Part shown: positions 1,757 to 63,717 of the stretch, piece after piece | Numbering within the stretch: the stretch's first letter is position 1 | Layout: each line of letters starts with the position of its first letter | From: Escherichia phage vB_EcoM-Ro121c4YLVW | Direction: 5' to 3' (one strand) | Length of the DNA stretch: 64,000 nt | Sequence record: NC_052654.1 | Made by a program: the position numbers and the translations under genes | The notes under the pieces: generated by a model | Database searches by the model: none | What the model was told of the DNA's origin: nothing | Seen by the model: only the letters and a program-made list of their open reading frames with translations

Positions 1757-1835
1757 TGGAGGCGGGAATCGGATTTGAACCGATGATCTCCAGCATATGA
1801 AACTGGCGAGGACGACCAGACTCCTCTATCCCGCT
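1757..1835 (-). tRNA. tRNA with anticodon CAU (Met or Ile2/lysidine)
   Basis: Hand fold: T-arm ATCGG-TTCAAAT-CCGAT, anticodon stem CCAGT/GCTGG, loop TTCATAT, CCA encoded; A1-C72 mismatch at acceptor end. Confidence 0.6.
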
Positions 1836-1841
1836 ATTATG

Positions 1842-1911
1842 TATCCCGTGCTGGATTCGAACCAGCATCACAATAAGCTGTGGAACTCTTATCCTGTAAG
1901 TCTAACGGGAA
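1842..1911 (-). tRNA. tRNA-like gene with non-canonical anticodon arm (4-bp stem CACA/TGTG with 6-nt loop); possible pseudo-tRNA
   Basis: Canonical T-arm GCTGG-TTCGAAT-CCAGC and 6-bp acceptor pairing, but no 5-bp stem / 7-nt loop anticodon arm can be drawn; about 70 nt. Confidence 0.35.
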
Positions 1912-1913
1912 AC

Positions 1914-1987
1914 TGGTTGTTTCGACAAGAATCGAACTTGTGTCTCACGATTATCAGTCGTGGGTTCTACCATTGAACTACGAAACA
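1914..1987 (-). tRNA. tRNA-Ile (anticodon GAU)
   Basis: Hand fold: acceptor TGTTTCG/CGAAACA, D-arm GTTC..GAAC, anticodon stem CACGA/TCGTG, loop CTGATAA, T-loop TTCGATT, CCA encoded. Confidence 0.7.
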
Positions 1988-1993
1988 TTTAAT

Positions 1994-2070
1994 TGGTCGG
2001 GACGGAGTGATTCGAACACTCGACCTCTCGCTCCCAAAGCGAGCGCACTACCAAGCTGTGCTACGTCCCG
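1994..2070 (-). tRNA. tRNA-Pro (anticodon UGG)
   Basis: Hand fold: acceptor CGGGACG/CGTCCCG, anticodon stem CTCGC/GCGAG, loop TTTGGGA, T-arm GAGTG-TTCGAAT-CACTC, CCA encoded. Confidence 0.7.
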
Positions 2071-2163
2071 TGATAACATTCTAAAGGTACACCGCAAAAG
2101 AAAGTGTTCGGCGGCTCCTCGTTTTTAACTTCACACTTAAGGTAGTGACTCACCTTTGTTATA

Positions 2164-2239
2164 TGGCTGGTCTGTCTGGATTTGAACCAAACCTACGACA
2201 GTCAAAGTGTCGTGTGCTACCGGACTACACTACAAACCA
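2164..2239 (-). tRNA. tRNA-Gln (anticodon UUG)
   Basis: Hand fold: acceptor TGGTTTG/CAGACCA, anticodon stem CGACA/TGTCG, loop CTTTGAC, T-loop TTCAAAT, CCA encoded, 76 nt. Confidence 0.65.
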
Positions 2240-2337
2240 ATAAATCATTTAATGAAGGGCAACCAGAAGAAGTGTGAGAGAAGGAGAAAACCATGAGTAA
2301 AAGAGAAAGTTTTCTGGCAACCCTTTATTAAATAATT

Positions 2338-2411
2338 TGGAGCGTTCTACGAGGATCGAACTCGTGCCGCCGACTTGGAAGGACGGAATGCTACCGCTAC
2401 ACCAAGAACGC
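2338..2411 (-). tRNA. tRNA-Gly (anticodon UCC)
   Basis: Hand fold: acceptor GCGTTCT/AGAACGC, T-arm ACGAG-TTCGATC-CTCGT, anticodon loop CTTCCAA (one T-T in stem), CCA encoded. Confidence 0.6.
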
Positions 2412-2422
2412 CATATATATTT

Positions 2423-2452
2423 ACTATACTACATTTTACTATTTGTTGTCAA
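2423..2452 (-). promoter_or_regulatory. sigma70-like promoter inside the tRNA cluster (TTGACA-N18-TATAGT on minus strand)
   Basis: Consensus -35 with near-consensus -10 read on minus strand, directly upstream of tRNA-Gly. Confidence 0.5.
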
Positions 2453-2725
2453 GACTTTTATTGATTGGGACAGTGACGAGTATCCCGTTGGGTGACTAGC
2501 CCTACGTTCGGTAAGCTAACTTAAAATAATACAAAACCAAAGTCAAATATTATTCTTCGTTGCTGTCGATGGGAGAGCCGCTTCTCATTTTGCCCCATCC
2601 AACCCTACTCCGGTCAAGTTTCGGGTGACTCTTTTTGTGATCAACACAATACTAAGAACACTGTCTTTCGAGCAGACCTTGTGCACAGGATACGACGATC
2701 AATCACAGTGCTCTTAATGTTGTGT
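2453..2725 (-). ncRNA. non-tRNA spacer inside tRNA operon; candidate stable small RNA(s)
   Basis: About 270 bp between tRNA-Thr and the internal promoter with no ORF and no T-loop motif; T4 carries non-tRNA stable RNAs in its tRNA region. Confidence 0.25.
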
Positions 2726-2800
2726 TGGTGCTCCCACACTGAATCGAACAGAGATCCACGGATTACAAAACCGTTGTAATAGCCATTATACTATAGGAGC
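2726..2800 (-). tRNA. tRNA-Thr (anticodon UGU)
   Basis: Hand fold: acceptor GCTCCTA/TGGGAGC (one G-U), anticodon stem ACGGT/TCCGT, loop TTTGTAA, T-loop TTCGATT, CCA encoded. Confidence 0.6.
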
Positions 2801-2806
2801 AATGCT

Positions 2807-2884
2807 GGGACTCGGCAGGATTCGATACCTGCAATTCCAGAAGCCTATTGGCGACTGGGGGGTTTACCTTAACTCTACAAGTCC
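2807..2884 (-). tRNA. tRNA-like gene with aberrant D/anticodon region (anticodon not assignable)
   Basis: Good acceptor pairing GGACTTG/CGAGTCC and T-arm GCAGG..CCTGC (8-nt loop TATCGAAT), but the central region (CCCCCC run) does not give a canonical anticodon arm; no CCA encoded. Confidence 0.3.
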
Positions 2885-2891
2885 ATAATTC

Positions 2892-2977
2892 TGGCGATGA
2901 GTATAGGATTCGAACCTATATTGTTCTTTCGAACACGGATTAACAGTCCGCCGCTTAAACCATTCAGCCAACTCATC
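2892..2977 (-). tRNA. type II (long variable arm) tRNA with anticodon GUU (Asn-decoding anticodon on a Tyr-like body)
   Basis: Hand fold: acceptor GATGAGT/ACTCATC, anticodon stem GCGGA/TCCGT, loop CTGTTAA, variable-arm hairpin GTTC-GAAA-GAAC, T-arm ATAGG-TTCGAAT-CCTAT, CCA encoded. Confidence 0.5.
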
Positions 2978-2983
2978 TTAATT

Positions 2984-3071
2984 TGGTGGTGAGTGATGGA
3001 GTCGAACCACCCGAATCGCAATGATAACAGATTTACAGTCTGCCCCGCTACCCCTACGGAATTAACTCACC
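2984..3071 (-). tRNA. tRNA-Tyr (anticodon GUA), type II
   Basis: Hand fold: acceptor GGTGAGT/ACTCACC, anticodon stem GCAGA/TCTGT, loop CTGTAAA, long variable arm, T-loop TTCGACT, CCA encoded. Confidence 0.6.
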
Positions 3072-3201
3072 TAAATACTAATATTTAAATTCTTTTTAAA
3101 ATAGCCAGTGTTCACACCACTAACTATGAGGTATCGGTAAAGTGGTTACCGCCACTTGCCGAAGATTTACTCTGCTAAAGTAAGCTACATTAAAAAGAAC
3201 T

Positions 3202-3287
3202 TGGCGGTAGATGTAGGACTCGAACCTACACGCCGTTTCCGACTACAGTTTAGCAAACTGTCGTGGCTACCATTTCACCAATCTACC
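3202..3287 (-). tRNA. tRNA-Ser (anticodon GCU), type II
   Basis: Hand fold: acceptor GGTAGAT/ATCTACC, anticodon stem ACAGT/ACTGT, loop TTGCTAA, long variable arm, T-arm TGTAGG-TTCGAGT-CCTACA, CCA encoded. Confidence 0.65.
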
Positions 3288-3292
3288 TAATC

Positions 3293-3383
3293 TGGCGGAA
3301 GGAGGGAGAGTCGAACTCCCAAGGCTCTTTCAAGCTCGGCGGTTTTCAAGACCGTTTTCGTCGCCACATCGATTTGCCCTTCC
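3293..3383 (-). tRNA. tRNA-Ser (anticodon UGA), type II
   Basis: Hand fold: acceptor GGAAGGG/TCCTTCC, anticodon stem CGGT/ACCG, loop CTTGAAA, long variable arm, T-arm GGGAG-TTCGACT-CTCCC, CCA encoded. Confidence 0.6.
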
Positions 3384-3617
3384 ATACTTATAATCTAACA
3401 TAAAATAATGTTTGTTGTCAATAGTTTTTTAAAACATTTTACCATGAATGGTGACTCCACCAACCCCCGTTCTCCACGAACGGTGCTCTTCGAGCATTTA
3501 TGTCTTCTAATATAACCGTGGCCTTTGTTTATAATGTCTGACATACTTGCCTCATTCTCTGCCACCATGATCAGTAGTGGGTTCAAATCACTTGAGCTAA
3601 TTCATGTTAAAATGTTC

Positions 3618-3692
3618 TGGTGTCTTTACAAGGAATCGAACCTTGACTAAGAGTTTAGAAGACTCCTGTGCTATCCATTACACCATAAAGAC
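3618..3692 (-). tRNA. tRNA-Arg (anticodon UCU)
   Basis: Hand fold: acceptor GTCTTTA/TAAAGAC, anticodon stem GGAGT/ACTCT, loop CTTCTAA, T-arm CAAGG-TTCGATT-CCTTG, CCA encoded. Confidence 0.7.
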
Positions 3693-3694
3693 TT

Positions 3695-3769
3695 TGGTGG
3701 CCCTGGCTGGTTTCGATCCAGCTACCTATCGGTTATGAGCCGACAGCTCTCCCATTGAGCTACAGGGCC
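3695..3769 (-). tRNA. tRNA with anticodon CAU (Met elongator or Ile2)
   Basis: Hand fold: acceptor GGCCCTG/CAGGGCC, D-arm GCTC-AATGGGAGA-GC, anticodon loop CTCATAA, T-arm GCTGG-ATCGAAA-CCAGC, CCA encoded. Confidence 0.65.
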
Positions 3770-8935: not shown

Positions 8936-9868
8936 GTGACTAAATTTAATTGCGACGATTTGGTTGAAAAAGGTTTAGTTCATAAGAAAACATATAAAGA
9001 AGGAGAGTATTCTGGTCTATCTGTTCTTAAGTATAAGAACAAAGTTTTCTGGGATAACTTATGGAGCATTGATTCTCGTCTTCTAGAATGTCGCGGAATC
9101 GTTGTTGATGCTGATGACAATGTTGTTATTTGGCCTTTCACTAAGATTTTTAATCGTTTTGAGAATGGCACAGATCTACCATTGGATGAACTTGTAGATG
9201 TGGTTCGTAAAGTAAATGGTTTTATGGCCTCTGTAGGTGTATATAAAGGTCAACTTATTGTATCGACAACAGGAAGCCTTGAATCAGATTTTGCAAGTAT
9301 TGCAAAGAATCGTATTGTTTCAGAGTGTGATGACATAGAACATTTCATCAAATGGACAGAGAGTGCAAAAGCAACTTTCCTTTTTGAAATCTGTGATCCT
9401 TCTGATCCGCATATTGTCGAAGAAGAACCAGGTGCATACTTAATTGGTGCCAGAATTCAAAATCCTGATGGGACAAGTTTTATGTTACCTGAAGGTGCTC
9501 TTGATGGAATTGCTTCTGTCACCAAATTTAAGCGTCCTGAAGTTCATCCAATGGTTAAGTTTTCAGATGTTGTTGAAATGTCTAAACATTGTAAACACGA
9601 AGGGTTTGTAGTTCGTGAAACAAACTATCCGTTCAACTTACTTTTAAAAATTAAATCACCACACTATCTTACTAAGAAGTTTCTTATGCGCGGTGGAGAT
9701 AAAAAGTGGGATCTGATTTGGGATAATCCAAAAAATGCCAAACAAATGGTTGACGAAGAATATTACGCTTTGTTAGAATGGATTCGAAATAATTTTACGA
9801 AGACTCAATGGGCTGCTTTAAATCAGCAAGAGCGACGTGAAAAAATCGAAAACTTTTTTGGAGGATAA
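8936..9868 (+). CDS. ligase-family nucleotidyltransferase, RNA-ligase-like (motif I KVNG, motif V EGFVVRE)
   Basis: GTG start; lysine nucleotidyltransferase motifs with Asn in place of Asp in motif I; sits between phosphoesterase and polynucleotide kinase. Confidence 0.45.
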   Translation: MTKFNCDDLVEKGLVHKKTYKEGEYSGLSVLKYKNKVFWDNLWSIDSRLLECRGIVVDADDNVVIWPFTKIFNRFENGTDLPLDELVDVVRKVNGFMASVGVYKGQLIVSTTGSLESDFASIAKNRIVSECDDIEHFIKWTESAKATFLFEICDPSDPHIVEEEPGAYLIGARIQNPDGTSFMLPEGALDGIASVTKFKRPEVHPMVKFSDVVEMSKHCKHEGFVVRETNYPFNLLLKIKSPHYLTKKFLMRGGDKKWDLIWDNPKNAKQMVDEEYYALLEWIRNNFTKTQWAALNQQERREKIENFFGG

Positions 9869-10273
9869 ATGAAACAACTTATCATTTTACGTGGCGTTTC
9901 AGGTGCTGGTAAATCTACAGTAGCAGAAATTATTTCTGAAGGTTATTGGCCTATCTGTGAGGCAGATCAATATCATTACACAGAGAGTGGTGTTTACGAT
10001 TGGAAGCCAGAAAATGTAGGTAAAGCACACGCATGGTGTCAGGGTATTGTTCGTGATGCTATGGCATCTAATCTTAACAAGATTATTGTTTCTAATACTT
10101 CAACCACAGAGAAAGAACTTAAACCTTATCTAGCTCTTGCTGAAGAGTTTGGTTATCAAGTTATCTCTTTAATTGTTGAAAATAGGCACGGTAATGATTC
10201 AATTCACGAGGTTCCACAATATATCCGTGATCAGCAAGAGAAACGTCTTCGTGGTTCACTTAAACTTCAATAA
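9869..10273 (+). CDS. P-loop polynucleotide-kinase-like protein
   Basis: Walker A GVSGAGKST at N-terminus, size and layout like the T4 Pnk kinase domain. Confidence 0.55.
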   Translation: MKQLIILRGVSGAGKSTVAEIISEGYWPICEADQYHYTESGVYDWKPENVGKAHAWCQGIVRDAMASNLNKIIVSNTSTTEKELKPYLALAEEFGYQVISLIVENRHGNDSIHEVPQYIRDQQEKRLRGSLKLQ

Positions 10274-10282
10274 GGAGAAATA

Positions 10283-10609
10283 ATGCAGATTTATACAGAT
10301 GATCGTAAATATGAGACAATTTTAGATGAAGATACTGGACGAATTACCGTTCTCCGTCACGGTGAAGAGTGGCGTGATGAAACGGGAGACAATTATATCT
10401 TGTCTCTGATTCATCTTATTGAACAAATGCGTGATGATTACGCTGAACTGCATTATGAAAATGAGGCTAATAAAGTAAAATTTGAAAATGAATTAGAAGA
10501 GAAAGAATCCGAAATGGTATATCTAAAAGAAGAGATCTCCCGTTTGGAGGAAGAGATTGATGCTCTTCAAGAAGAGATTTACGAACTCAACAACGAACTG
10601 AACGCTTAA
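10283..10609 (+). CDS. hypothetical coiled-coil protein
   Basis: ORF track; E/L-rich heptads. Confidence 0.45.
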   Translation: MQIYTDDRKYETILDEDTGRITVLRHGEEWRDETGDNYILSLIHLIEQMRDDYAELHYENEANKVKFENELEEKESEMVYLKEEISRLEEEIDALQEEIYELNNELNA

Positions 10610-12152: not shown

Positions 12153-12347
12153 ATGTTCTTAGCCATTTTAATCGTTTTCAGTGTACTTTCTTTTTATTGT
12201 ATGAATGCTTCGGAAAACTTTCCTAAGAATTCAAAGAAAAGAACCGTATGTGTTGTGATTGATTCATGTATGTCTGGAGTTGGGTATGCGGTAGTTTCTT
12301 GTTTCTTAGCTTATCATTGTTCAAAATACCTGGAGGCATTTTTATGA
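12153..12347 (+). CDS. small membrane protein
   Basis: ORF track; SD AGGAGG; two hydrophobic helices. Confidence 0.45.
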   Translation: MFLAILIVFSVLSFYCMNASENFPKNSKKRTVCVVIDSCMSGVGYAVVSCFLAYHCSKYLEAFL

Positions 12348-12526
12348 TAATTTTAGCAACAATTCTTATGATGCTGATAGCAATTGCTATTGTAATTCTG
12401 GCATCTTTTCCAGCGGATAAATGGTATTTCAATATTCCACGTATGCTTGTTTTCGGTTTCGCAGGAATTTACATGGGTGAGACTGTAGTAAATATTAGCA
12501 ACTTTCTAGAAAGCTATTTTAAATAA
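12344..12526 (+). CDS. small membrane protein
   Basis: Internal Met of ORF 12266..12526 after GGAGG; hydrophobic. Confidence 0.4.
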   Translation: MIILATILMMLIAIAIVILASFPADKWYFNIPRMLVFGFAGIYMGETVVNISNFLESYFK

Positions 12527-12535
12527 GGAGTTATA

Positions 12536-13261
12536 ATGATCGAGAATTTTTTTAAAGATATTAAGTTCGATACTGAATTTTTCAAAAATGCAGCGAAGCA
12601 CGTGATTGATTGGAATGCTAAAGCACGAGGTGGTGAACAACCTGAATTCACTCAAGAGCTATTTATGTCCCAAATCGGATTCGTTCGTGAAGAGCTTAAA
12701 GAGTATGAAACAGCCGCGAAAGTAAACGATCATGTAGAACTCTTGGATGCAGCAGCGGATATTTTTGTAGTATCCAGTTATCTGACCTACATGTTCTTTG
12801 GTGAAGAACATACGATGAATTTCTTGGACTATGCTGTAGGCGATGTTTTTACTCCAACTGTGTATACTGATTTTGATGCTTTGGAACAAACATTTACAGA
12901 GCCAGTTCAAATGGCACTAATGGCTGCTGGTATTATGCGTATGTCTCGTGACACTCTAATCCGTTCAAAATATCCAGAAAAGAAAGTTATTAAAGAGGTA
13001 TTGAAAAGTAATGATTCCAAGTATCCAACTAAACAACAGTTGCTGAAAACTTGGAAAACTTCGGATATCGATTCAGCCATTGCACAAGAATGCGCTGCAA
13101 TTGAAGAACGAAATGCCAATCGTCCAGAAGGGGCATACACTGGTGTTCATGCTGTTTATAATGAAAAACAGAAAGTGTATGTGTTCTTTGATGATAAAGG
13201 TAAGATCATGAAACCATCGACCTTTGTCAAACCTAATATTGCAGGTATTATTAACAAGTAA
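12536..13261 (+). CDS. MazG-like nucleotide pyrophosphohydrolase (tentative)
   Basis: All-alpha profile with E-x-x-E...D acidic motif (EELKEYE...DAAADI). Confidence 0.35.
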   Translation: MIENFFKDIKFDTEFFKNAAKHVIDWNAKARGGEQPEFTQELFMSQIGFVREELKEYETAAKVNDHVELLDAAADIFVVSSYLTYMFFGEEHTMNFLDYAVGDVFTPTVYTDFDALEQTFTEPVQMALMAAGIMRMSRDTLIRSKYPEKKVIKEVLKSNDSKYPTKQQLLKTWKTSDIDSAIAQECAAIEERNANRPEGAYTGVHAVYNEKQKVYVFFDDKGKIMKPSTFVKPNIAGIINK

Positions 13262-57052: not shown

Positions 57053-57436
57053 TTATTCAATGCAAGCATTATTTGCATCTTCAATGCGATCTTTCACCCA
57101 TTGCACACGAAACTTGTTGGTATGACACGCTAAAGCTATACACTCTGAAAGGTAATCCATGCAATCTGCATTGAACGGAAGATTGTAGTCCAGCCCTGCA
57201 CATGTAAATTGTTTCCTCATTTCATATTTCAAACGGTCTAACAAATGATCACGCCATCTTCTATCTTCTTCTCTAGTTGTCTCACCAACAAAATCATCTA
57301 CATAGTCTACCAGACAACCACATAAGCCACTCGTTGTGCGATTCATTGCAGGATAGTTGGCAATCCATGCTTTATAGAAGCGAAGCAATGTTGCACTACT
57401 CAACGGAATACTATTTGTCATTTTTCTCTCCTTCAT
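57053..57436 (-). CDS. paralogous family A member
   Basis: SD AAGGAGAG; motifs FYKAWI, GLCGCL, LPFN, VQWVKDRI. Confidence 0.5.
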   Translation of the reverse strand: MKERKMTNSIPLSSATLLRFYKAWIANYPAMNRTTSGLCGCLVDYVDDFVGETTREEDRRWRDHLLDRLKYEMRKQFTCAGLDYNLPFNADCMDYLSECIALACHTNKFRVQWVKDRIEDANNACIE

Positions 57437-57755
57437 AATCTTGAATTCTATCTAGCACCCATTGTATACGATGTTTGTTTTTATGGCAAATATGTTTTTT
57501 ATGTTCGAAGGTGTATTCCTCATAACCACCTTCATTAAACGGGAAATTGTAATCCAATCCTGCACCAATAAACTGTGATTTCATCTCCTGTTGTAGACGA
57601 GGTAACAGTTCATCAGGATATGTTCCCTCTACATACTTAATCAAACATATGCACAAACCACTCGTTGTGTGACCTTCTACCTCACCAGCAAGCCAAGCTT
57701 TGTAAAACTTCATTAGACGTAAACTGCTCAACGGAACATTTTTACTCTTTTGCAT
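57411..57755 (-). CDS. paralogous family A member
   Basis: SD GAGGAGA; motifs FYKAWL, GLCICL, FPFN, IQWVLDRI. Confidence 0.5.
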   Translation of the reverse strand: MQKSKNVPLSSLRLMKFYKAWLAGEVEGHTTSGLCICLIKYVEGTYPDELLPRLQQEMKSQFIGAGLDYNFPFNEGGYEEYTFEHKKHICHKNKHRIQWVLDRIQDYEGEKNDK

Positions 57756-57759
57756 GACA

Positions 57760-59270
57760 ATCTCCTCTCATCGTTAGCCATCTTTCATGGCAATCATCAA
57801 TCACCAACATCATACGATCAATCTTAGGGAATTACAATCGAATTATCATAGGGGATTCCTATCAATTATCCCATATATACCGATTATTTTTGACACCCCA
57901 CTCTTGTATAAAAAGTAACCCAAAATATCTACGGGGAGAGATTATTTCGGGACACCCTGTTTCATAGCAATCATGGCAAGAATATCTAATAGAATCAATA
58001 TGATATGGCAAAAATCATGGCGCATACGTAAGAAGTGCTTAACGCGAATTTTCGGGCCGTCAGGTCCACGCAGCGACAATTCCCAAATATCATGCGAATG
58101 AGAATAATTATCATTCGTATTCAATGACTTATGCAAGGCTCATGCCAACATAGCGACAAGGTGGGCCACTTGATTATAAATCACACAAACACTTATTTAT
58201 CAATGGTTTGGCAACTTCATCATATGACGGAACAATGTCAACTGATCCCGCTCATGACAAGCAGACTATTATTTATATGAGAATGATTATTATTTAAACG
58301 TTTATTAACATATAAACTAAAATAAATCAAGAATTTTCTGATTTTATTTACGTTTAAGAGAAGGTGCTCAACATATCGCTACGCGATAGTATTCGCCCCC
58401 AAAAGATTAGCCTTTATTTTCTTGTATGTTTATACACTGCGTGTACATCTATGTGCACACTATGCAACCTGTCGCTATTCGCTCATGTTGCTACGTGCAA
58501 TTATTCATCTTGCTAATGATTTCATATTGTAACTATTACAATGACTATTGTTATTGCGCTAATGTTATGATCTTGGTAATTACATATAATGCTAATAATA
58601 AGCCAGCGCAATAAGTGTAAGCGTCATTACGCTTGCAATTATTGCAAGCTACGCAGTAACAAGAAATAACCGTCACCGATGGTTATGATTGTTGGGGTGT
58701 AGTTGGCTTATTATTAGCTCGCTATGTGTCCGGCATAGCGTGCTAATGATGACTCTGTGAATGATTCGTTTTGTAATGATTTCATTCAGGCACTATTTTG
58801 CTAATAGTTATTATTTTAATGGTTTCGTTTGTTATTGTTCGTTAGTTGGTTGTTTTGTCGTGTTATCGTTATCTTGCTTAGTATTCATCATGGTTTGATT
58901 GTTTGTCATTATCAATCATCTTGCTATTATTCCTTTGATTATGATTAGTTTGCTTATTGTTTTAGGTTGTTGGTTGGTTAGTTGTTGCGAACTATTATCA
59001 ACATTATAGTTATGCACTTATATTGCATAGATAAACATGGATAGATGATAATGGTTATCATTGCACCAGAAAGGAGGTAAAAGGGTGTTTTTGATGGTTT
59101 GTTGTTGGTTGTTGATCGATTTTAACCGCTTTAAATGGCTCTCTAACAGCCTGTTACCCTGGGAGGTATGGTTATTCATTTAATGGTTGATTAGCTTGAT
59201 ACCACTATTTATTCAGTTTTGTTCTGTGTCGGTTTTCCATAGGCGGAATCTATCAACATTGTTCGGGCAA
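57760..59270. repeat. 1.5-kb non-coding, repeat-rich region (GCTAAT-type short direct repeats, palindromes, G+T-skewed tract)
   Basis: No credible ORF; repeated gctaatg / gtaatgatttcat / ttgttattg motifs; palindromes aagcgtcattacgctt and cttgcaattattgcaag; long GT-rich tract 58800-59000. Confidence 0.5.
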
Positions 59271-59297
59271 AAAGAAAGGGCGCTTGGTGCGCCCCTT
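59271..59297 (-). terminator. intrinsic terminator GGGCGC-ttggt-GCGCCC + TTTCTTT (minus strand)
   Basis: Direct reading. Confidence 0.55.
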
Positions 59298-59775: not shown

Positions 59776-59804
59776 AATATAATATAACGCCGATCCCCTG
59801 TCAA
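59776..59804 (-). promoter_or_regulatory. sigma70-like promoter TTGACA-N17-TATATT (minus strand)
   Basis: Direct reading. Confidence 0.55.
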
Positions 59805-59837: not shown

Positions 59838-59865
59838 TTAAAGGGCGCTTAGTGCGCCCTTGTAT
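59838..59865 (-). terminator. hairpin GGGCGC-ttagt-GCGCCC (terminator between monocistronic units)
   Basis: Direct reading. Confidence 0.45.
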
Positions 59866-59869
59866 AATC

Positions 59870-60238
59870 TTACTTTGTGCTGTTGTAAACGTTATCGCGT
59901 TCAACCATCAGGGCAAGGCGGATCAGTTGATCAGTTGTATCGCTTAAGCTTTTAGGCCATGTTTTACTGTTCCAGCTATCAAGATTAGATTGAATATATG
60001 TATCAATGGCTTGATCCATGTTGTCAAACAAGTTTTCTTCTAAGCTCTCGGCTGTTTCACACTGGAAAGCATTAGCCACACTATTAATCAGTAAGCAAGC
60101 CAGTAAATCAGCGTTACGCCAATTTTTACGGATAGTTTCATCTGTCAGATAACCAACGAGATTAACCTTTGCGCCAGTGGTGGACGTTGCGATCACTTCT
60201 TGCGCTTTTTCAACTGCTTTAATTGCTGATTTGCTCAT
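59870..60238 (-). CDS. hypothetical protein
   Basis: ORF 59870..60316 with start moved to Met after AGAGGAAAATAAA; upstream part overlaps promoter. Confidence 0.45.
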   Translation of the reverse strand: MSKSAIKAVEKAQEVIATSTTGAKVNLVGYLTDETIRKNWRNADLLACLLINSVANAFQCETAESLEENLFDNMDQAIDTYIQSNLDSWNSKTWPKSLSDTTDQLIRLALMVERDNVYNSTK

Positions 60239-60287
60239 TTTATTTTCCTCTTTGTGGGCTTGCTGTATTGCTTGCCCTACGAGATAA

Positions 60288-60316
60288 ATAATAATATAAG
60301 GGTGATCCGGTGTCAA
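60288..60316 (-). promoter_or_regulatory. sigma70-like promoter TTGACA-N17-TATTAT (minus strand)
   Basis: Direct reading. Confidence 0.55.
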
Positions 60317-60490
60317 TAGGTAGAATTGTAAAGATTCGATAGTTTATCTCTTTGATGTTTTGTTGTTTGATAGGTGTTAGCTATCAATATATAGCGGGGT
60401 CGTCCGGTGATTATCTTCCCTGTTGCCAGTGCCGCCCGTTCAATAAGCATAACAAAAAACAGGACAAAAACAAGCCCTGTTTTGTAAAGA

Positions 60491-60694
60491 TTAGATGATC
60501 TGCATATCCTCCACGATAATTTCTAATTTCCAAACAAGATGATCTAAGCTCCCTGATAAAAATGATTCCGATACATAACCGCCATCGGATACCGTAGCAA
60601 GGATCTCGCCATTTGCTTGCTCTTTGATTTGAACATCCAGGCGGTTAGCCTTTGCTTTATTCAGGACGGCGATCAGGCGGTTAGCTGTAGTCAT
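60491..60694 (-). CDS. hypothetical protein
   Basis: ORF 60491..60745; first 17 codons are translation of the leader hairpin repeat, so start moved to internal Met. Confidence 0.4.
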   Translation of the reverse strand: MTTANRLIAVLNKAKANRLDVQIKEQANGEILATVSDGGYVSESFLSGSLDHLVWKLEIIVEDMQII

Positions 60695-60699
60695 GGTGT

Positions 60700-60728
60700 T
60701 TCCTTCCAGTGGTGAGCGGCACCATTGC
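60700..60728 (-). repeat. GC-rich 5'-leader hairpin repeat (GTAGGGCGGCAATGGTGCCGCTCAC family), copy 1
   Basis: Near-identical copies at about 62040, 63285 and 63650, each 10-30 nt upstream of a minus-strand start codon. Confidence 0.55.
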
Positions 60729-60777
60729 CGCCCTACAAAACACATCTTACACTATCCGGCACATTGTGCAAGCTATT

Positions 60778-60969
60778 TTAAATCTTATCGCCAATATAAT
60801 CTGATCTGTTCTTCTCTGTCATGCGCTTTAATAATTCTTGCATATTGCTTATAGCTTGCAAGGTGTCTTCTTCCAGACTTGAATCAACATAATCAGGATC
60901 ATTCTTCACCTTGCTATAGTTGTGATAGCGTAACGCTGCTAATACCTTTCTAACTTGTTCCACGTTCAT
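60778..60969 (-). CDS. hypothetical protein
   Basis: ORF track. Confidence 0.4.
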   Translation of the reverse strand: MNVEQVRKVLAALRYHNYSKVKNDPDYVDSSLEEDTLQAISNMQELLKRMTEKNRSDYIGDKI

Positions 60970-61115
60970 AATGTACCCTTAAAATAGTGTGCCGATGGAA
61001 GATAGCAGGTCACTAACAACTAAAACCAGATCTACTATCACATATCTAATCAGGAAGGGGATAAGCGCCAGCGTCGCTACTATGATCCCCATTGTGATGA
61101 TCACCTTTCTCATCG

Positions 61116-61400
61116 TTAGCGGCTTACGTAGGCTTTACCGTTTACGGTCATCGGTATGGCTTCAAGGTCTGGATCTTCCTTAAGGTCGCGTGCAAGCTCA
61201 CCGCAGCGGATACCCTCGAATCCGTGATATTCTGTTACACCGTCGTTAAATGTTTTAGCGGCAAGGCATAGGCGATAATTAACGCCGATCCGGTTTATTG
61301 CGTTGATATCGGTTAGCGTGATGGATTCTGGCAACTCATTAGCCAGTACAGGCGCGTTAATACCAACAACCAGGGCAACTACTGCGATCATCTTTTTCAT
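61116..61400 (-). CDS. secreted protein (signal peptide)
   Basis: ORF track; MKKMIAVVALVVGINAPVLA. Confidence 0.45.
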   Translation of the reverse strand: MKKMIAVVALVVGINAPVLANELPESITLTDINAINRIGVNYRLCLAAKTFNDGVTEYHGFEGIRCGELARDLKEDPDLEAIPMTVNGKAYVSR

Positions 61401-61454
61401 GTGTCTATCCTCTTCCTATTGCGTTTAATGGGGCGTTACCGCCCCGCTTATGGT

Positions 61455-61691
61455 TTATTGATTGATGTTATGATGAAAGTTATTTTCTTCAATAGCTTTT
61501 AAAATAAAAGCCGTGATCGCTTTCGTGTCTACTTGTTCGAACGTATCAGAATAAGCCCAATAATAATCATCCCCTACTTTCGGCGGGTAAACCTGGACAA
61601 GGAGATCGCCACCTGGTTGATCTATAAGCTCAACATGCAAGCCGGATGATTCAGCGGTTTTAACGGCGTTTAATACTGTTGCAATACTCAT
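61455..61691 (-). CDS. hypothetical protein
   Basis: ORF track. Confidence 0.4.
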   Translation of the reverse strand: MSIATVLNAVKTAESSGLHVELIDQPGGDLLVQVYPPKVGDDYYWAYSDTFEQVDTKAITAFILKAIEENNFHHNINQ

Positions 61692-61735
61692 AATCTTTCC
61701 CTTTCTGATGTGGGGCGTTGCCGCCCCTTTGTTGA

Positions 61736-62035
61736 TTAGATCGCTGTTTCCAGTAGTTCGGCTAACGTCTTACCGCCTGATAGTTGGTCTAACGTTTGCT
61801 CTTCTGGCAAGAAATTAGCTGATATTAATCCGACTTGATTTCCTTTGTGCCAATTAGCTTGACGGATGATTCCATCCTTTAAAGATTTTACCGCCATTGT
61901 GCAACCGTCGCCAAATGATTCATTTTTATGATCCATTACTTCATAAGCGCCCAGCTTGCTGCTGTTAGGCACCATTAATGCGAATACATCACCAACAACC
62001 AGTTTTTCTACGGTAACAATAGCGATAGTTTCCAT
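61736..62035 (-). CDS. hypothetical protein
   Basis: ORF track. Confidence 0.4.
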   Translation of the reverse strand: METIAIVTVEKLVVGDVFALMVPNSSKLGAYEVMDHKNESFGDGCTMAVKSLKDGIIRQANWHKGNQVGLISANFLPEEQTLDQLSGGKTLAELLETAI

Positions 62036-62116
62036 TTTACTTTCCTCATTATCGGCGGCACCATTGCCGCCCTACGTGGTAAATATTAGCACACTGGCGA
62101 TCTGTGTCAATACTTT

Positions 62117-62503
62117 TTATTCAATATAAATCAAATTATCTTCACCAATGTAAGCCGACACGTTCGGCATAAACTTAGCTGCATTGGTTAGGCGGTTCGC
62201 CGTGTTAGTGGTGTATATTTCAGGGCGATCCCAAAAGCCTACGCCGTGACTGTTACGGGTAAAATGTAAATCATTCCCGATCTGGTTGGCTGTTGCGCCG
62301 TCGCTCATTGCCTCAGAGATAGCGGCATTATTGGCATCACAAAACGCCGCCACGTCACGTATGATCCGCTGATGGGCTTGATCTGAAAATTCATAATCAG
62401 TCATGTCATCTATAAAATTACCTTCATGATCCCTTGCGGATTCAGCAAAAATAAAGGCTTCTTTATAACCGTTGATGATTTCAATAATGATTTCTGTTTT
62501 CAT
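62117..62503 (-). CDS. hypothetical protein
   Basis: ORF track. Confidence 0.45.
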   Translation of the reverse strand: MKTEIIIEIINGYKEAFIFAESARDHEGNFIDDMTDYEFSDQAHQRIIRDVAAFCDANNAAISEAMSDGATANQIGNDLHFTRNSHGVGFWDRPEIYTTNTANRLTNAAKFMPNVSAYIGEDNLIYIE

Positions 62504-62724
62504 GCTGTACGCTCGACAATAATAATGGTTTGCGGTATCTCGTTTTCTACTACTAATAAGGCTTTTTTCTGCGTGATAGATATTTTAACACGTTGTAAAG
62601 TAGCGGTAAAATCTTTCATTTCATTATGCGCGGATTTAGTGCAATGCCAGATCTCAGGCTTACCTATTTGCAAGCCGCGTAAAAATTCTGTTTTACCTGT
62701 CTTATTCGTGATCATTTGATTCAC
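62500..62724 (-). CDS. hypothetical protein
   Basis: ORF track; ATGA overlap. Confidence 0.4.
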   Translation of the reverse strand: MNQMITNKTGKTEFLRGLQIGKPEIWHCTKSAHNEMKDFTATLQRVKISITQKKALLVVENEIPQTIIIVERTA

Positions 62725-62902
62725 CTTAACCGATACCGTGGGAAGATAGGATCATATTAGCCATAGTTGCAACCACTCCAACCGATAACGCCAGGCCCAC
62801 TATTACAACCGTGAAAATTTTCTCTAACATGATTCTACCCTCATTAATGGGCGTTGCCTTATTGCCCCGCCCTACGAAATACATTCTATCAGATAACAAA
62901 TT

Positions 62903-63049
62903 ATCGTCAAGATTTATTTTTTACTTCCCAAACGGAAAATTCGCTGCCTGTTGGGATCATCTTTTTAATCTTGTTTGCTGCCGCTACCAGGTCAACGGCT
63001 TGCACTGTAATAATATAACCAATTGTCGAGGCTGTTGCGTTGAAAGTTT
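62903..63049 (-). CDS. small hypothetical protein (about 48 aa)
   Basis: Minus-strand ATG downstream of hairpin GGCGGGA-TTAA-TCCCGCC. Confidence 0.25.
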
Positions 63050-63097
63050 TCATTATATTACCCTTTAATACAGGCGGGATTAATCCCGCCTTGTTGA

Positions 63098-63268
63098 TTA
63101 CTCTTCATCGTCGCCGTTATAGTATTCAATGCCATTTTCATCGGTTACGGTGATGTTAACGCCACCGATAGCAACACGATCACGGGCAAACGTCATGGCT
63201 TCATTTAAATCTTCAGACCAAAAAATATTGTGACCTTTGCGCGATACATAAAACATAGTCGGGATCAT
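63098..63268 (-). CDS. hypothetical protein
   Basis: ORF 63098..63352 with start moved to internal Met (upstream codons are the hairpin repeat). Confidence 0.35.
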   Translation of the reverse strand: MIPTMFYVSRKGHNIFWSEDLNEAMTFARDRVAIGGVNITVTDENGIEYYNGDDEE

Positions 63269-63353
63269 GATTTGTTTCTCTTCTGTTGTGAGCGGTGGAC
63301 CATTCCGCCGCCCTATGTGGTAAACTTTACTACGTTGTTTGCGTGCTGTCAAA

Positions 63354-63638
63354 TTATTTTTTAATGTTTTGCCCTACAAAATTAATCATTTCCTTAAGCT
63401 GTCTCTCTGTCATGATCGTACCTGGTAACTCTTCTTTAATTTCTTCCGGTAAATAAATATTACCGCGCCAGGTTAACAAACAACCGTTTTGATCTTCGCA
63501 GATAGAATAGGAAAACATCCACTCGCAATCATTTTCAAGCTCCCAAAAACACAAAAAGTCTTCTTTCCCTAAGTTTTCAACGGTTAAACATAATCCGCGA
63601 CGTGCTGCATAATTAGTTAGGCTTTTTGTGATTTTCAT
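63354..63638 (-). CDS. hypothetical protein
   Basis: ORF 63354..63689 with start moved to internal Met (MKITKSL). Confidence 0.4.
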   Translation of the reverse strand: MKITKSLTNYAARRGLCLTVENLGKEDFLCFWELENDCEWMFSYSICEDQNGCLLTWRGNIYLPEEIKEELPGTIMTERQLKEMINFVGQNIKK

Positions 63639-63717
63639 GATTTTTCTCTCTTCTTGTGAGCGGCACCATTGCCGCCCTACAAGATACATATTACCAGACT
63701 AAGCCGACTTGTCAAAC

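Follow-up and report, generated by a model that had tools for sequence, protein, structure and literature searches.

Repeated promoter-hairpin units in the early gene array of a phAPEC8-like phage: a putative counterpart of the promoter-early stem-loop cassettes

The 64,000 nucleotides of Escherichia phage vB_EcoM-Ro121c4YLVW analysed here (NC_052654.1), referred to as the window, contain at 59-64 kb a run of small open reading frames (ORFs) on the minus strand that is part of an early ORFan array. GC-rich hairpins recur in the 5' leaders of successive genes of this block. Its best match was phage Schickermooser (Phapecoctavirus), with 94% identity across the whole 5 kb, and 255 phage records matched the block in all. 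On sequence grounds, the window belongs to a Phapecoctavirus, a phAPEC8-like myovirus of the Stephanstirmvirinae. In Schickermooser, the counterpart of the block makes up the distal portion of a long early unit that runs rightward to a strong terminator. Ten early proteins scanned from the window and ten from the divergent early promoter region of Schickermooser all fell into PHROG families of unknown function. An initial annotation, made from the sequence alone, had described a compositional shift over the block. The shift is real but small, with a GC content of 0.40-0.44 against about 0.35-0.41 in the neighbouring sequence, and the AT skew is -0.11 to -0.18 against about 0 there.

The repeated GC-rich leader hairpins reported in that annotation are real, and their layout is given in Table 1. 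Four near-identical elements had been listed. The canonical sequence GTAGGGCGGCAATGGTGCCGCTCAC, for which 0 matches are expected in shuffled sequence, occurs exactly in cassettes A and E. The copy placed near 62040 is present in cassette D with three mismatches at its 3' end, and the one placed at 63285 is the longer-stem variant ATAGGGCGGCGGAATGGTCCACCGCTCAC of cassette B rather than a near-identical copy. Two copies had been overlooked, GTAGGGCGGGGCAATAAGGCAACGCCC in cassette C and GTAGGGCAAGC...GCAAGCCCAC in cassette F, so that the block holds six promoter-linked units and not four. The N-terminal ORF extensions MCFVGRQWCRS and MYLVGRQWCRS were rightly taken for the translated repeat; they lie upstream of the real starts at 60694 and 63638.

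Table 1. Promoters, leader hairpins and terminators in the 59-64 kb block (window coordinates; hairpins as 5' arm/loop/3' arm)
Feature	Position	Strand	Promoter elements	Predicted +1	Hairpin	Gene and remarks
Cassette A	63636..63715	-	-35 TTGACA 63715-63710; -10 TAATAT 63693-63688; 7-nt discriminator	G 63680	63680-63656, GGGCGGCA/AUGG/UGCCGCUC	purine-rich SD; ATG 63638; gene end 63354
Cassette B	63266..63352	-	-35 TTGACA 63352-63347; -10 TAAAGT ending 63324	A 63316	63316-63288, GGGCGGCGGA/AUGG/UCCACCGCUC, one C-A mismatch	ATG 63268; gene end 63098
Promoter-less leader hairpin	63072..63091	-			GGCGGGA/UUAA/UCCCGCC	after stop codon, 19 nt before ATG 63053
Cassette C	62828..62910	-	-35 TTGACG 62910-62905; -10 TAGAAT ending 62883	G 62875	62875-62847, GGGCG..GC/AAUAAG/GC..CGCCC	ATG 62830; small membrane-like protein
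Cassette D	62033..62110	-	-35 TTGACA 62110-62105; -10 TAATAT ending 62083	G 62075	62075-62051, GGCGGCA/AUGG/UGCCGCC	ATG 62035
Promoter-less intercistronic hairpin	61712..61727	-			GGGGCG/GCAA/CGCCCC, GNRA loop	20 nt before ATG 61691
Promoter-less intercistronic hairpin	61429..61446	-			GGGGCG/GUAA/CGCCCC, GNRA loop	29 nt before ATG 61400
Cassette E	60692..60771	-	-35 TTGCAC 60771-60766; 16-nt spacer; -10 TAAGAT 60749-60744	G 60736	60736-60712, identical to cassette A	ATG 60694; gene end 60491
Intrinsic-terminator-like hairpin with T-tract	60456..60483	-				after cassette E gene
Cassette F	60236..60316	-	-35 TTGACA 60316-60311; -10 TATTAT ending 60288	G 60280	60280-60254, weaker, interrupted, GGGC..GC/AAUACA/GC..GCCC, -10.5 kcal/mol	ATG 60238
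Probable weak terminator	59843..59859	-			GGGCGC/ACUAA/GCGCCC, then only TTT	after cassette F gene
Seventh sigma-70-like promoter	59776..59804	-	TTGACA-N17-TATATT		minimum free energy 0	
Strong intrinsic terminator	59275..59297	-			GGGGCGC/ACCAA/GCGCCC then CTTTTTG	closes early array

In all six units, a near-consensus sigma-70 promoter (-35 TTGACA, TTGACG or TTGCAC, a 16-17 nt spacer, -10 TAnnnT and an A-rich upstream flank) has exactly 7 nt between its -10 hexamer and a downstream [G/A]TAGGGC, and the ATG falls at +41 to +49. A cassette of about 85 nt can be read as an A-rich UP-like tract, the -35 and -10 hexamers, a 7-nt AT-rich discriminator, R-U-A followed by a stem-loop, a Shine-Dalgarno (SD) sequence and AUG. 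The stem-loop has 8-10 bp, its 5' arm being rich in G and its 3' arm in C; about 10 nt separate it from the SD, and each cassette serves one small ORFan. Because the spacing from the -10 hexamer is fixed at 7 nt, the mRNA is predicted to begin with the ~25 nt of the hairpin. A covariance model of the cassette hairpins, built from the leaders of relatives, gave hits confined to 60.2-63.7 kb within the window.

The same coupling was found in relatives, where loci were counted in Phapecoctavirus and Justusliebigvirus. Among 74 sites of RTAGGG followed by CGG or GCG, a -10 hexamer lay 6-7 nt upstream in 73 (exactly 7 nt in 64), and a -35 hexamer was present too in 68. The stem started 9-11 nt after the -10 hexamer in 73 of the 74, which places the hairpin at +4 to +24 of its own promoter. 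Schickermooser carries 20 such units within about 11 kb. The exact variant occurred at 451 places in 134 phage records, all of them from this phage group or labelled with other hosts. The early promoters of Justusliebigvirus (PaulScherrer) and Vequintavirus (DrSchubert, rV5-like) have different GC-rich hairpins in the same position. The cassette type is seen in phAPEC8-like, phi92-like and rV5-like myoviruses. The promoter at 60316 has orthologues in Klebsiella phage KpS8 (position 9040) and in WPEC1 (about 15731) that retain GTAGGGC at the predicted start but have no hairpin behind it. The start-site sequence and the hairpin are therefore separable.

The only record in which the exact variant is annotated is phAPEC8 (JX561091), where the 20-mer GTAGGGCGGCAATGGTGCCG is labelled a "putative promoter determined with PHIRE" (556-575, 937-956, 1787-1806 and 3202-3221). 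The 20-mer and the loci are the same as here, and the difference is one of label: the feature comes directly after a "host dependent promoter determined with MEME", and the context is that of a leader. Judged by this position, the "PHIRE promoter" is a mislabelled leader downstream of the actual sigma-70 promoter, and later annotations may inherit the mistake. The literature on Phapecoctavirus, rV5-like phages and PVP-SE1 describes clustered sigma-70 early promoters and no hairpin, and we found no paper describing a promoter-hairpin unit for these phages.

A similar arrangement was also seen in unrelated viral contigs, as TTGACA, a -10 hexamer, 7 nt, GTAGGGCGG and a hairpin starting from GGG, some with the hairpin in the same place (contigs L002, L003 and L012 at about 7038, 4778 and 712; L010 at 225; L004 at 12690 and 12804, and on its minus strand with a -10 hexamer ending at 2603 in reverse-complement coordinates). 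The promoter plus RTAGGGCGG pattern has about 17.5 specified bases, for which about 10 chance hits are expected, and these contigs were not used as support. They may be more than chance, the hairpins being outside the search pattern.

Nine elements of the block fold at -10.5 to -15.7 kcal/mol, with z scores of -2.2 to -5.2 relative to dinucleotide shuffles; the range counted in favour of the cassette is -10.5 to -15.1 kcal/mol, with z of -2.2 to -4.6. In the canonical copy of cassette A, the stem is extended by G1:C25 and U2:A24, which leaves 0 nucleotides free at the 5' end. A hairpin of -10 kcal/mol or lower lies within +1 to +32 of six of the seven strong promoters in the block, whereas only 1.5% of all 32-mers of the window fold to this extent (binomial P about 9e-11). 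The stems vary widely in sequence, 72 unique leaders containing 57 distinct ones. The distal stem changes with compensation (GCA/UGC, GGAA/UUCC, GGCGGA/UCCACC, GGGGCG/CGCCCC) and the basal pair is G:C, G:U or A:U. A covariation of the terminal pair, G1:C25 against A1:U25, looked mixed by eye and was dropped.

To quantify the pairing, we counted pairs of the named 8-bp helix in a MAFFT alignment of 65 leaders, with 500 shuffles and a slid-partner control. Paired cells amounted to 83.8%, compared with 75.5% in the shuffles, none of which reached the observed value (0/500), and with 37-55% for slid partners. Cells changed on both sides numbered 43 against 19 in the shuffles (0/500). By these counts, covariation exceeded both controls. 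Three phages have three different hairpins between the same promoter and the same gene at orthologous loci. Together these comparisons indicate that the hairpin pairing is kept through sequence change. G:U pairs (16) outnumber C-A 1x1 mismatches (5, with no A-C), and the 5' arm is nearly always the purine-rich one (G 281, A 82, C 76, T 5). The excess of G:U over C-A and the strand asymmetry of the arms favour sense-strand RNA over duplex DNA as the level at which the hairpin matters. A scan of 58-64 kb against Rfam at E up to 1 returned only a chance snoRNA match outside the elements.

The hairpins had been placed 10-30 nt upstream of start codons with no U-tract after them, and both statements hold. 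From stem end to ATG there are 17-23 nt in most promoter-linked units across relatives and 19-29 nt in the promoter-less ones, and the sequence after the hairpin has a mean T fraction of 0.17, reaching 50% T or more in 3 of 74 units. The preference for RNA-level leader hairpins over terminators is also borne out, by the missing U-tract, the retained pairing and the promoter upstream of each unit. An intrinsic (Rho-independent) terminator was rejected on the further grounds that the sense-strand terminator scan omits the hairpins and that terminators with T-tracts stand elsewhere in the block. A terminator at +4 to +24 of its own promoter would, moreover, abort its own transcript.

Three RNA-level functions had been offered, and the interpretation is partly supported. 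A translational operator is unlikely, as the hairpin ends 17-23 nt before the ATG and the SD and AUG are unpaired in most units; the SD region was mostly unpaired in full-leader folds, and an SD-masking or RegA-type operator and a RegB site were rejected accordingly. Among RNase processing sites, the RNase III type is unlikely, since it needs about two helical turns (~20 bp) and the stems have only 8-10 bp. A stability element is the best fit of the three. Outside this list, the put-type antitermination RNA of HK022, with two stem-loops in about 70 nt, was rejected because the element here has only one hairpin, of 8-10 bp and about 25 nt, and no Rfam match.

Is the cassette also a unit of exchange between genomes? 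Compared with Schickermooser, the window lacks three single-gene units (Schickermooser 9138-9351, 10253-10456 and 12256-12549), each consisting of one gene and one cassette. The alignment blocks on either side share 65, 66 and 17 nt, and in all three gene indels this overlap lies on the cassette. With indels bounded in this way, gene content differs cassette by cassette between near-identical phages. The promoter half of cassette C corresponds to Schickermooser 9124 and its hairpin and gene half to 9399; for cassette D, the promoter corresponds to 10199 and the leader and gene to 10471; cassette F is likewise a fusion of one Schickermooser unit's promoter with the hairpin and gene of the unit that follows. 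Across more than 10 genomes, a given promoter may precede differing hairpin and gene pairs, a given hairpin and gene pair may follow differing promoters, and in some cases the hairpin only has been replaced. One phAPEC8 unit has its promoter replaced by another hairpin. In the metagenomic relative IMGVR_UViG_3300010279_000001 (minus strand, about 6630), only GTAGGGCGGCC is left of the element and the SD of the MKTFNATA gene follows immediately, a deletion with its breakpoint inside the hairpin. Crossovers cluster at both hairpin edges. The comparisons thus point clearly to promoter, hairpin and gene reassorting between genomes.

The closest precedent is the promoter-early stem-loop (PeSL) cassette of the T4-like phages RB49/phi1, PST/T4 and nt-1/KVP40 (Arbiol 2010 PMC2839356; Comeau 2014 PMC4122927). 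Like the PeSL, the unit described here is an intergenic repeat in which an AT-rich tract leads into a near-consensus sigma-70 early promoter, accompanied by a stem-loop of the G-run/loop/C-run type and by the SD and start codon. Both are concentrated among small ORFans, in both the repeats flank the indels that separate close relatives, and both show shuffling of modules. Promoter type, an adjacent stem-loop of this form and an ORFan location with repeat-bounded indels are all present, and what is missing is a stem-loop inside the promoter, upstream of the start site. The PeSL stem-loop mostly lies between -35 and -10 or over the -10 hexamer and is interpreted as terminating the unit before it (PMC2839356), whereas the stem-loop here is fixed downstream of the -10 hexamer and transcribed from its own promoter. 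It is also without a U-tract, and the phages are Stephanstirmvirinae/Vequintavirinae and not T4-like.

At the RNA level, the likeness is to other hairpins. A stem-loop with few unpaired 5' nucleotides in the ompA 5' untranslated region reportedly stabilises E. coli mRNA (Emory, Bouvet and Belasco, in 1992). As in stabilisers of the ompA type, the hairpins here are stable, would by promoter geometry lie 0-3 nt from the predicted 5' end, and are upstream of and separate from the ribosome-binding site. Unlike them, they occur on more than 20 mRNAs per genome, share sequence and are also found promoter-less between cistrons. Stable intercistronic hairpins with UUCG or GNRA tetraloops are said to have been described in phage T4 mRNAs by Tuerk et al. 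in 1988. These are resembled in the short GC stems, the GCAA and GUAA tetraloops (61.7 and 61.4 kb), the location between small genes and the absence of a U-tract; the difference is that most copies here are tied to promoters and have the loops AUGG, UAG or UGG, which are not canonical tetraloops. By analogy, the unit would behave as a PeSL in the genome and as a 5' stabiliser hairpin in the RNA. We regard the cassette as a variant of a known arrangement and not as a new kind of regulator.

Then, what might such a unit do? On balance we favour, as somewhat probable, a PeSL-like early expression cassette in which a 5'-terminal mRNA hairpin would serve as stabiliser and insulator and the repeats as homology for recombination. 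The architecture, the fixed register, the open ribosome-binding site, the missing U-tract and the restriction to the early ORFan array can all be read directly from the sequence. Counted from the -10 hexamer, position 7 is a pyrimidine and position 8 a purine, and by the known preference of E. coli RNA polymerase the host enzyme would start at this purine, 8 nt after the hexamer. From this predicted start, the nascent early mRNA would fold into a 5'-terminal hairpin with 0-3 free 5' nucleotides, which would probably protect these short messages from the 5'-end-dependent decay pathway of RppH and RNase E. The hairpin may also, within read-through or polycistronic RNA, insulate the downstream ribosome-binding site and act as a decay barrier, a role that would explain the promoter-less copies with similar hairpin-AUG geometry. 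At the DNA level, the conserved repeat flanks TAGGGCGG and CCGCTCAC-AGAAGAGA would be homology patches, and recombination at them may delete, insert or swap single-gene cassettes, as for PeSLs in T4-like phages.

Several observations weigh against this reading. Two of the five covariation measures were not above the shuffles, pairs with change on both sides being matched in 72/500 shuffles and further pair types in 123/500, in a test weakened by the dependence between cells, as the copies are related and undergo gene conversion. RNAalifold returned no consensus structure on the gapped MAFFT alignment. The hairpin is not obligatory, since KpS8, WPEC1 and one strong promoter of the block do without it; this last promoter (59776..59804), alone in the block in lacking a leader hairpin, provides an internal contrast. 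A promoter-less copy could stand at a 5' end only after RNA processing. Within Phapecoctavirus, the 5' arm TAGGGCGG hardly changes, unlike the distal stem and loop, and this near-invariance could reflect recognition of the sequence and not of structure alone. Finally, we found no transcript 5' ends, half-lives or reporter data in the literature on this phage group.

Among the other explanations, an attenuator or terminator of the PeSL type, by which the stem-loop would stop or damp transcription from the upstream cassette and leave each gene driven only by its own promoter, is unlikely. When a PeSL stem-loop of RB49/phi1 was inserted between a promoter and lacZ, expression fell to about the same extent as with rrnB T1 (PMC2839356), the stems here share the G-run, loop and C-run form (PMC4122927), and the cassettes are densely stacked on one strand. 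However, the T fraction after the stem is low, real T-tract terminators stand separately in the block, and a hairpin at +4 to +24 of its own promoter (73/74), were it an efficient terminator, would abort its own transcripts.

A specific RNA tag or operator is likewise an unlikely reading. On this view the 5'-RUAGGGCGG stem-loop would be the target of a protein from phage or host, such as a RegA-like repressor, nuclease adaptor or chaperone, which would co-regulate all early mRNAs, for example in an early-to-middle shut-off. The near-invariant TAGGGCGG beside a variable distal stem and loop speaks for it, as do loops that begin with AA, often as AAURGU, and the sharing of the tag by more than 20 genes per genome. 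However, sister genera that retain the hairpin do not keep the motif (AAAGGCGGG, ACAGGCGGG, CGGGCC), the hairpin is clear of the SD and AUG, and concerted evolution of recombining repeats can explain the invariance. None of the 20 early proteins scanned was a candidate RNA-binding protein, in a scan that did not look for RegA/RegB-like proteins directly.

Somewhat less credible is that the hairpin repeat persists through cassette exchange alone, whether homologous, by template switch or site-specific, and has no RNA role. Every indel relative to Schickermooser has its junction in a cassette, the modules reassort, and PeSL mini-circles offer a precedent (PMC2839356). Nevertheless, homology alone requires neither a hairpin nor a fixed -10 register nor a fixed distance to the AUG, and the pairing persists where another stem sequence has taken over, also in genera with unrelated stems.

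It is quite improbable that the invariant 5'-RUAGGGCGG hairpin is a dedicated recognition tag, in the form of an attC-like single-strand recombination site or a "self" RNA mark. The first form would give site-specific exchange of single-gene cassettes among virulent myoviruses, like integron attC; in the second, the hairpin would spare phage early mRNAs from a phage-boosted host RNase E. T4 Srd was reported to stimulate RNase E on host mRNA (PMC4980113), and a probable Srd homologue was reported for rV5 (PMC3606486). The 5' hairpins would fit a "protect self, degrade host" scheme drawn from that remark in PMC3606486 and from PMC4980113. No Srd-annotated family was present among the 20 early proteins scanned, 10 from the window and 10 from Schickermooser.

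Highly improbable, too, is a DNA operator, in which the inverted repeat over +1 to +25 would be bound by a phage repressor to silence the early promoters. In favour of it, a palindrome across +1 has the classic operator position and recurs at every early promoter by this account. However, the GGGCGG-CCGCYC half-sites are spaced by 8-12 nt around differing inner stems, which is incompatible with one rigid dimer and led us to reject the operator of a dimeric repressor; the G:U excess (16 against 5) and the strand-asymmetric arms point to sense-strand RNA; and promoter-less copies exist. A phage-specific promoter, as labelled in phAPEC8 after PHIRE had picked the 20-mer as an over-represented intergenic motif, is scarcely tenable, since the motif stands at fixed spacing directly downstream of a near-consensus sigma-70 promoter and 17-23 nt before the ATG, where a downstream start would fall in the SD or the ORF, and no phage RNA polymerase was reported for rV5-like phages, in which transcription may run without modification of the host polymerase according to the rV5 paper (PMC3606486) and no RNA polymerase gene is present according to the CB7 paper (PMC7344957).

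Promoter and stem-loop gene cassettes are thereby known beyond the T4-like phages, in a second large group of virulent coliphages, the relatives of phAPEC8, phi92 and rV5, many of which are phage-therapy candidates. With the different position of the stem-loop, its likely job shifts from terminator to an mRNA 5' cap-like hairpin. The analysis also corrects the "PHIRE promoter" mis-annotation and the spurious N-terminal extensions of ORF calls, and the cassette offers a compact natural part that combines a strong promoter, a 5' hairpin and a ribosome-binding site.

The three promoter-less hairpins had been noted as related elements. They exist, at coordinates 10-20 nt away from those given, and their sequences had been written in plus-strand sense although the genes are on the minus strand. 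The hairpin at 63091-63072 scored 19 bits against the covariance model of the cassette hairpins, and the gene after it has a full promoter and hairpin in phage DrSchubert. Hairpins of the GGGGCG-GNRA-CGCCCC form, like those at 61.4 and 61.7 kb, stand downstream of promoters in phage PaulScherrer, and no U-tract follows the hairpin at 61712..61727 on the sense strand. Their distance of 19-29 nt to the ATG overlaps the 17-23 nt of the promoter-linked units. We read the three as leader hairpins of similar geometry whose own promoter appears to be missing. The hairpins at 63.08 and 61.72 kb share TAATCAACAA(A) just before them on the sense strand, and the third, at 61.4 kb, is without it. All three have a T-rich tail on the plus strand, which the terminator scan lists as terminator-like, and they (63072-63100, 61712-61745, 61429-61446) could block antisense transcription.

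The block was correctly credited with promoters and GGGCGC terminators of its own, and both were found in the promoter and terminator scan (Table 1). Directly after the terminator that closes the array, an AT-rich stretch of about 1.3 kb (57900-59250) has no convincing ORF and contains CAACAA-rich runs; a repeat scan of 57.7-59.35 kb gave only weak two-copy direct or inverted repeats. A "non-coding" box is also marked on the genome map in the rV5 paper (PMC3606486). Three records labelled "Campylobacter phage" (C12, C7 and A142; MG065635, MG065658 and MG065662) are 85-96% identical to E. coli rV5/phAPEC8-type DNA, and their host label may be wrong. Elsewhere in the window, ten tRNA genes are clustered on the minus strand at 1757-3769 (Met, Ile, Pro, Gln, Gly, Thr, Asn, Ser, Arg, Met). 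Two adjacent overlapping minus-strand ORFs of 127 and 114 amino acids, 57053-57436 and 57411-57755, look like paralogues and have in common the pattern LSS..L..FYKAW...TSGLC.CL..YV...LDYN.PFN.

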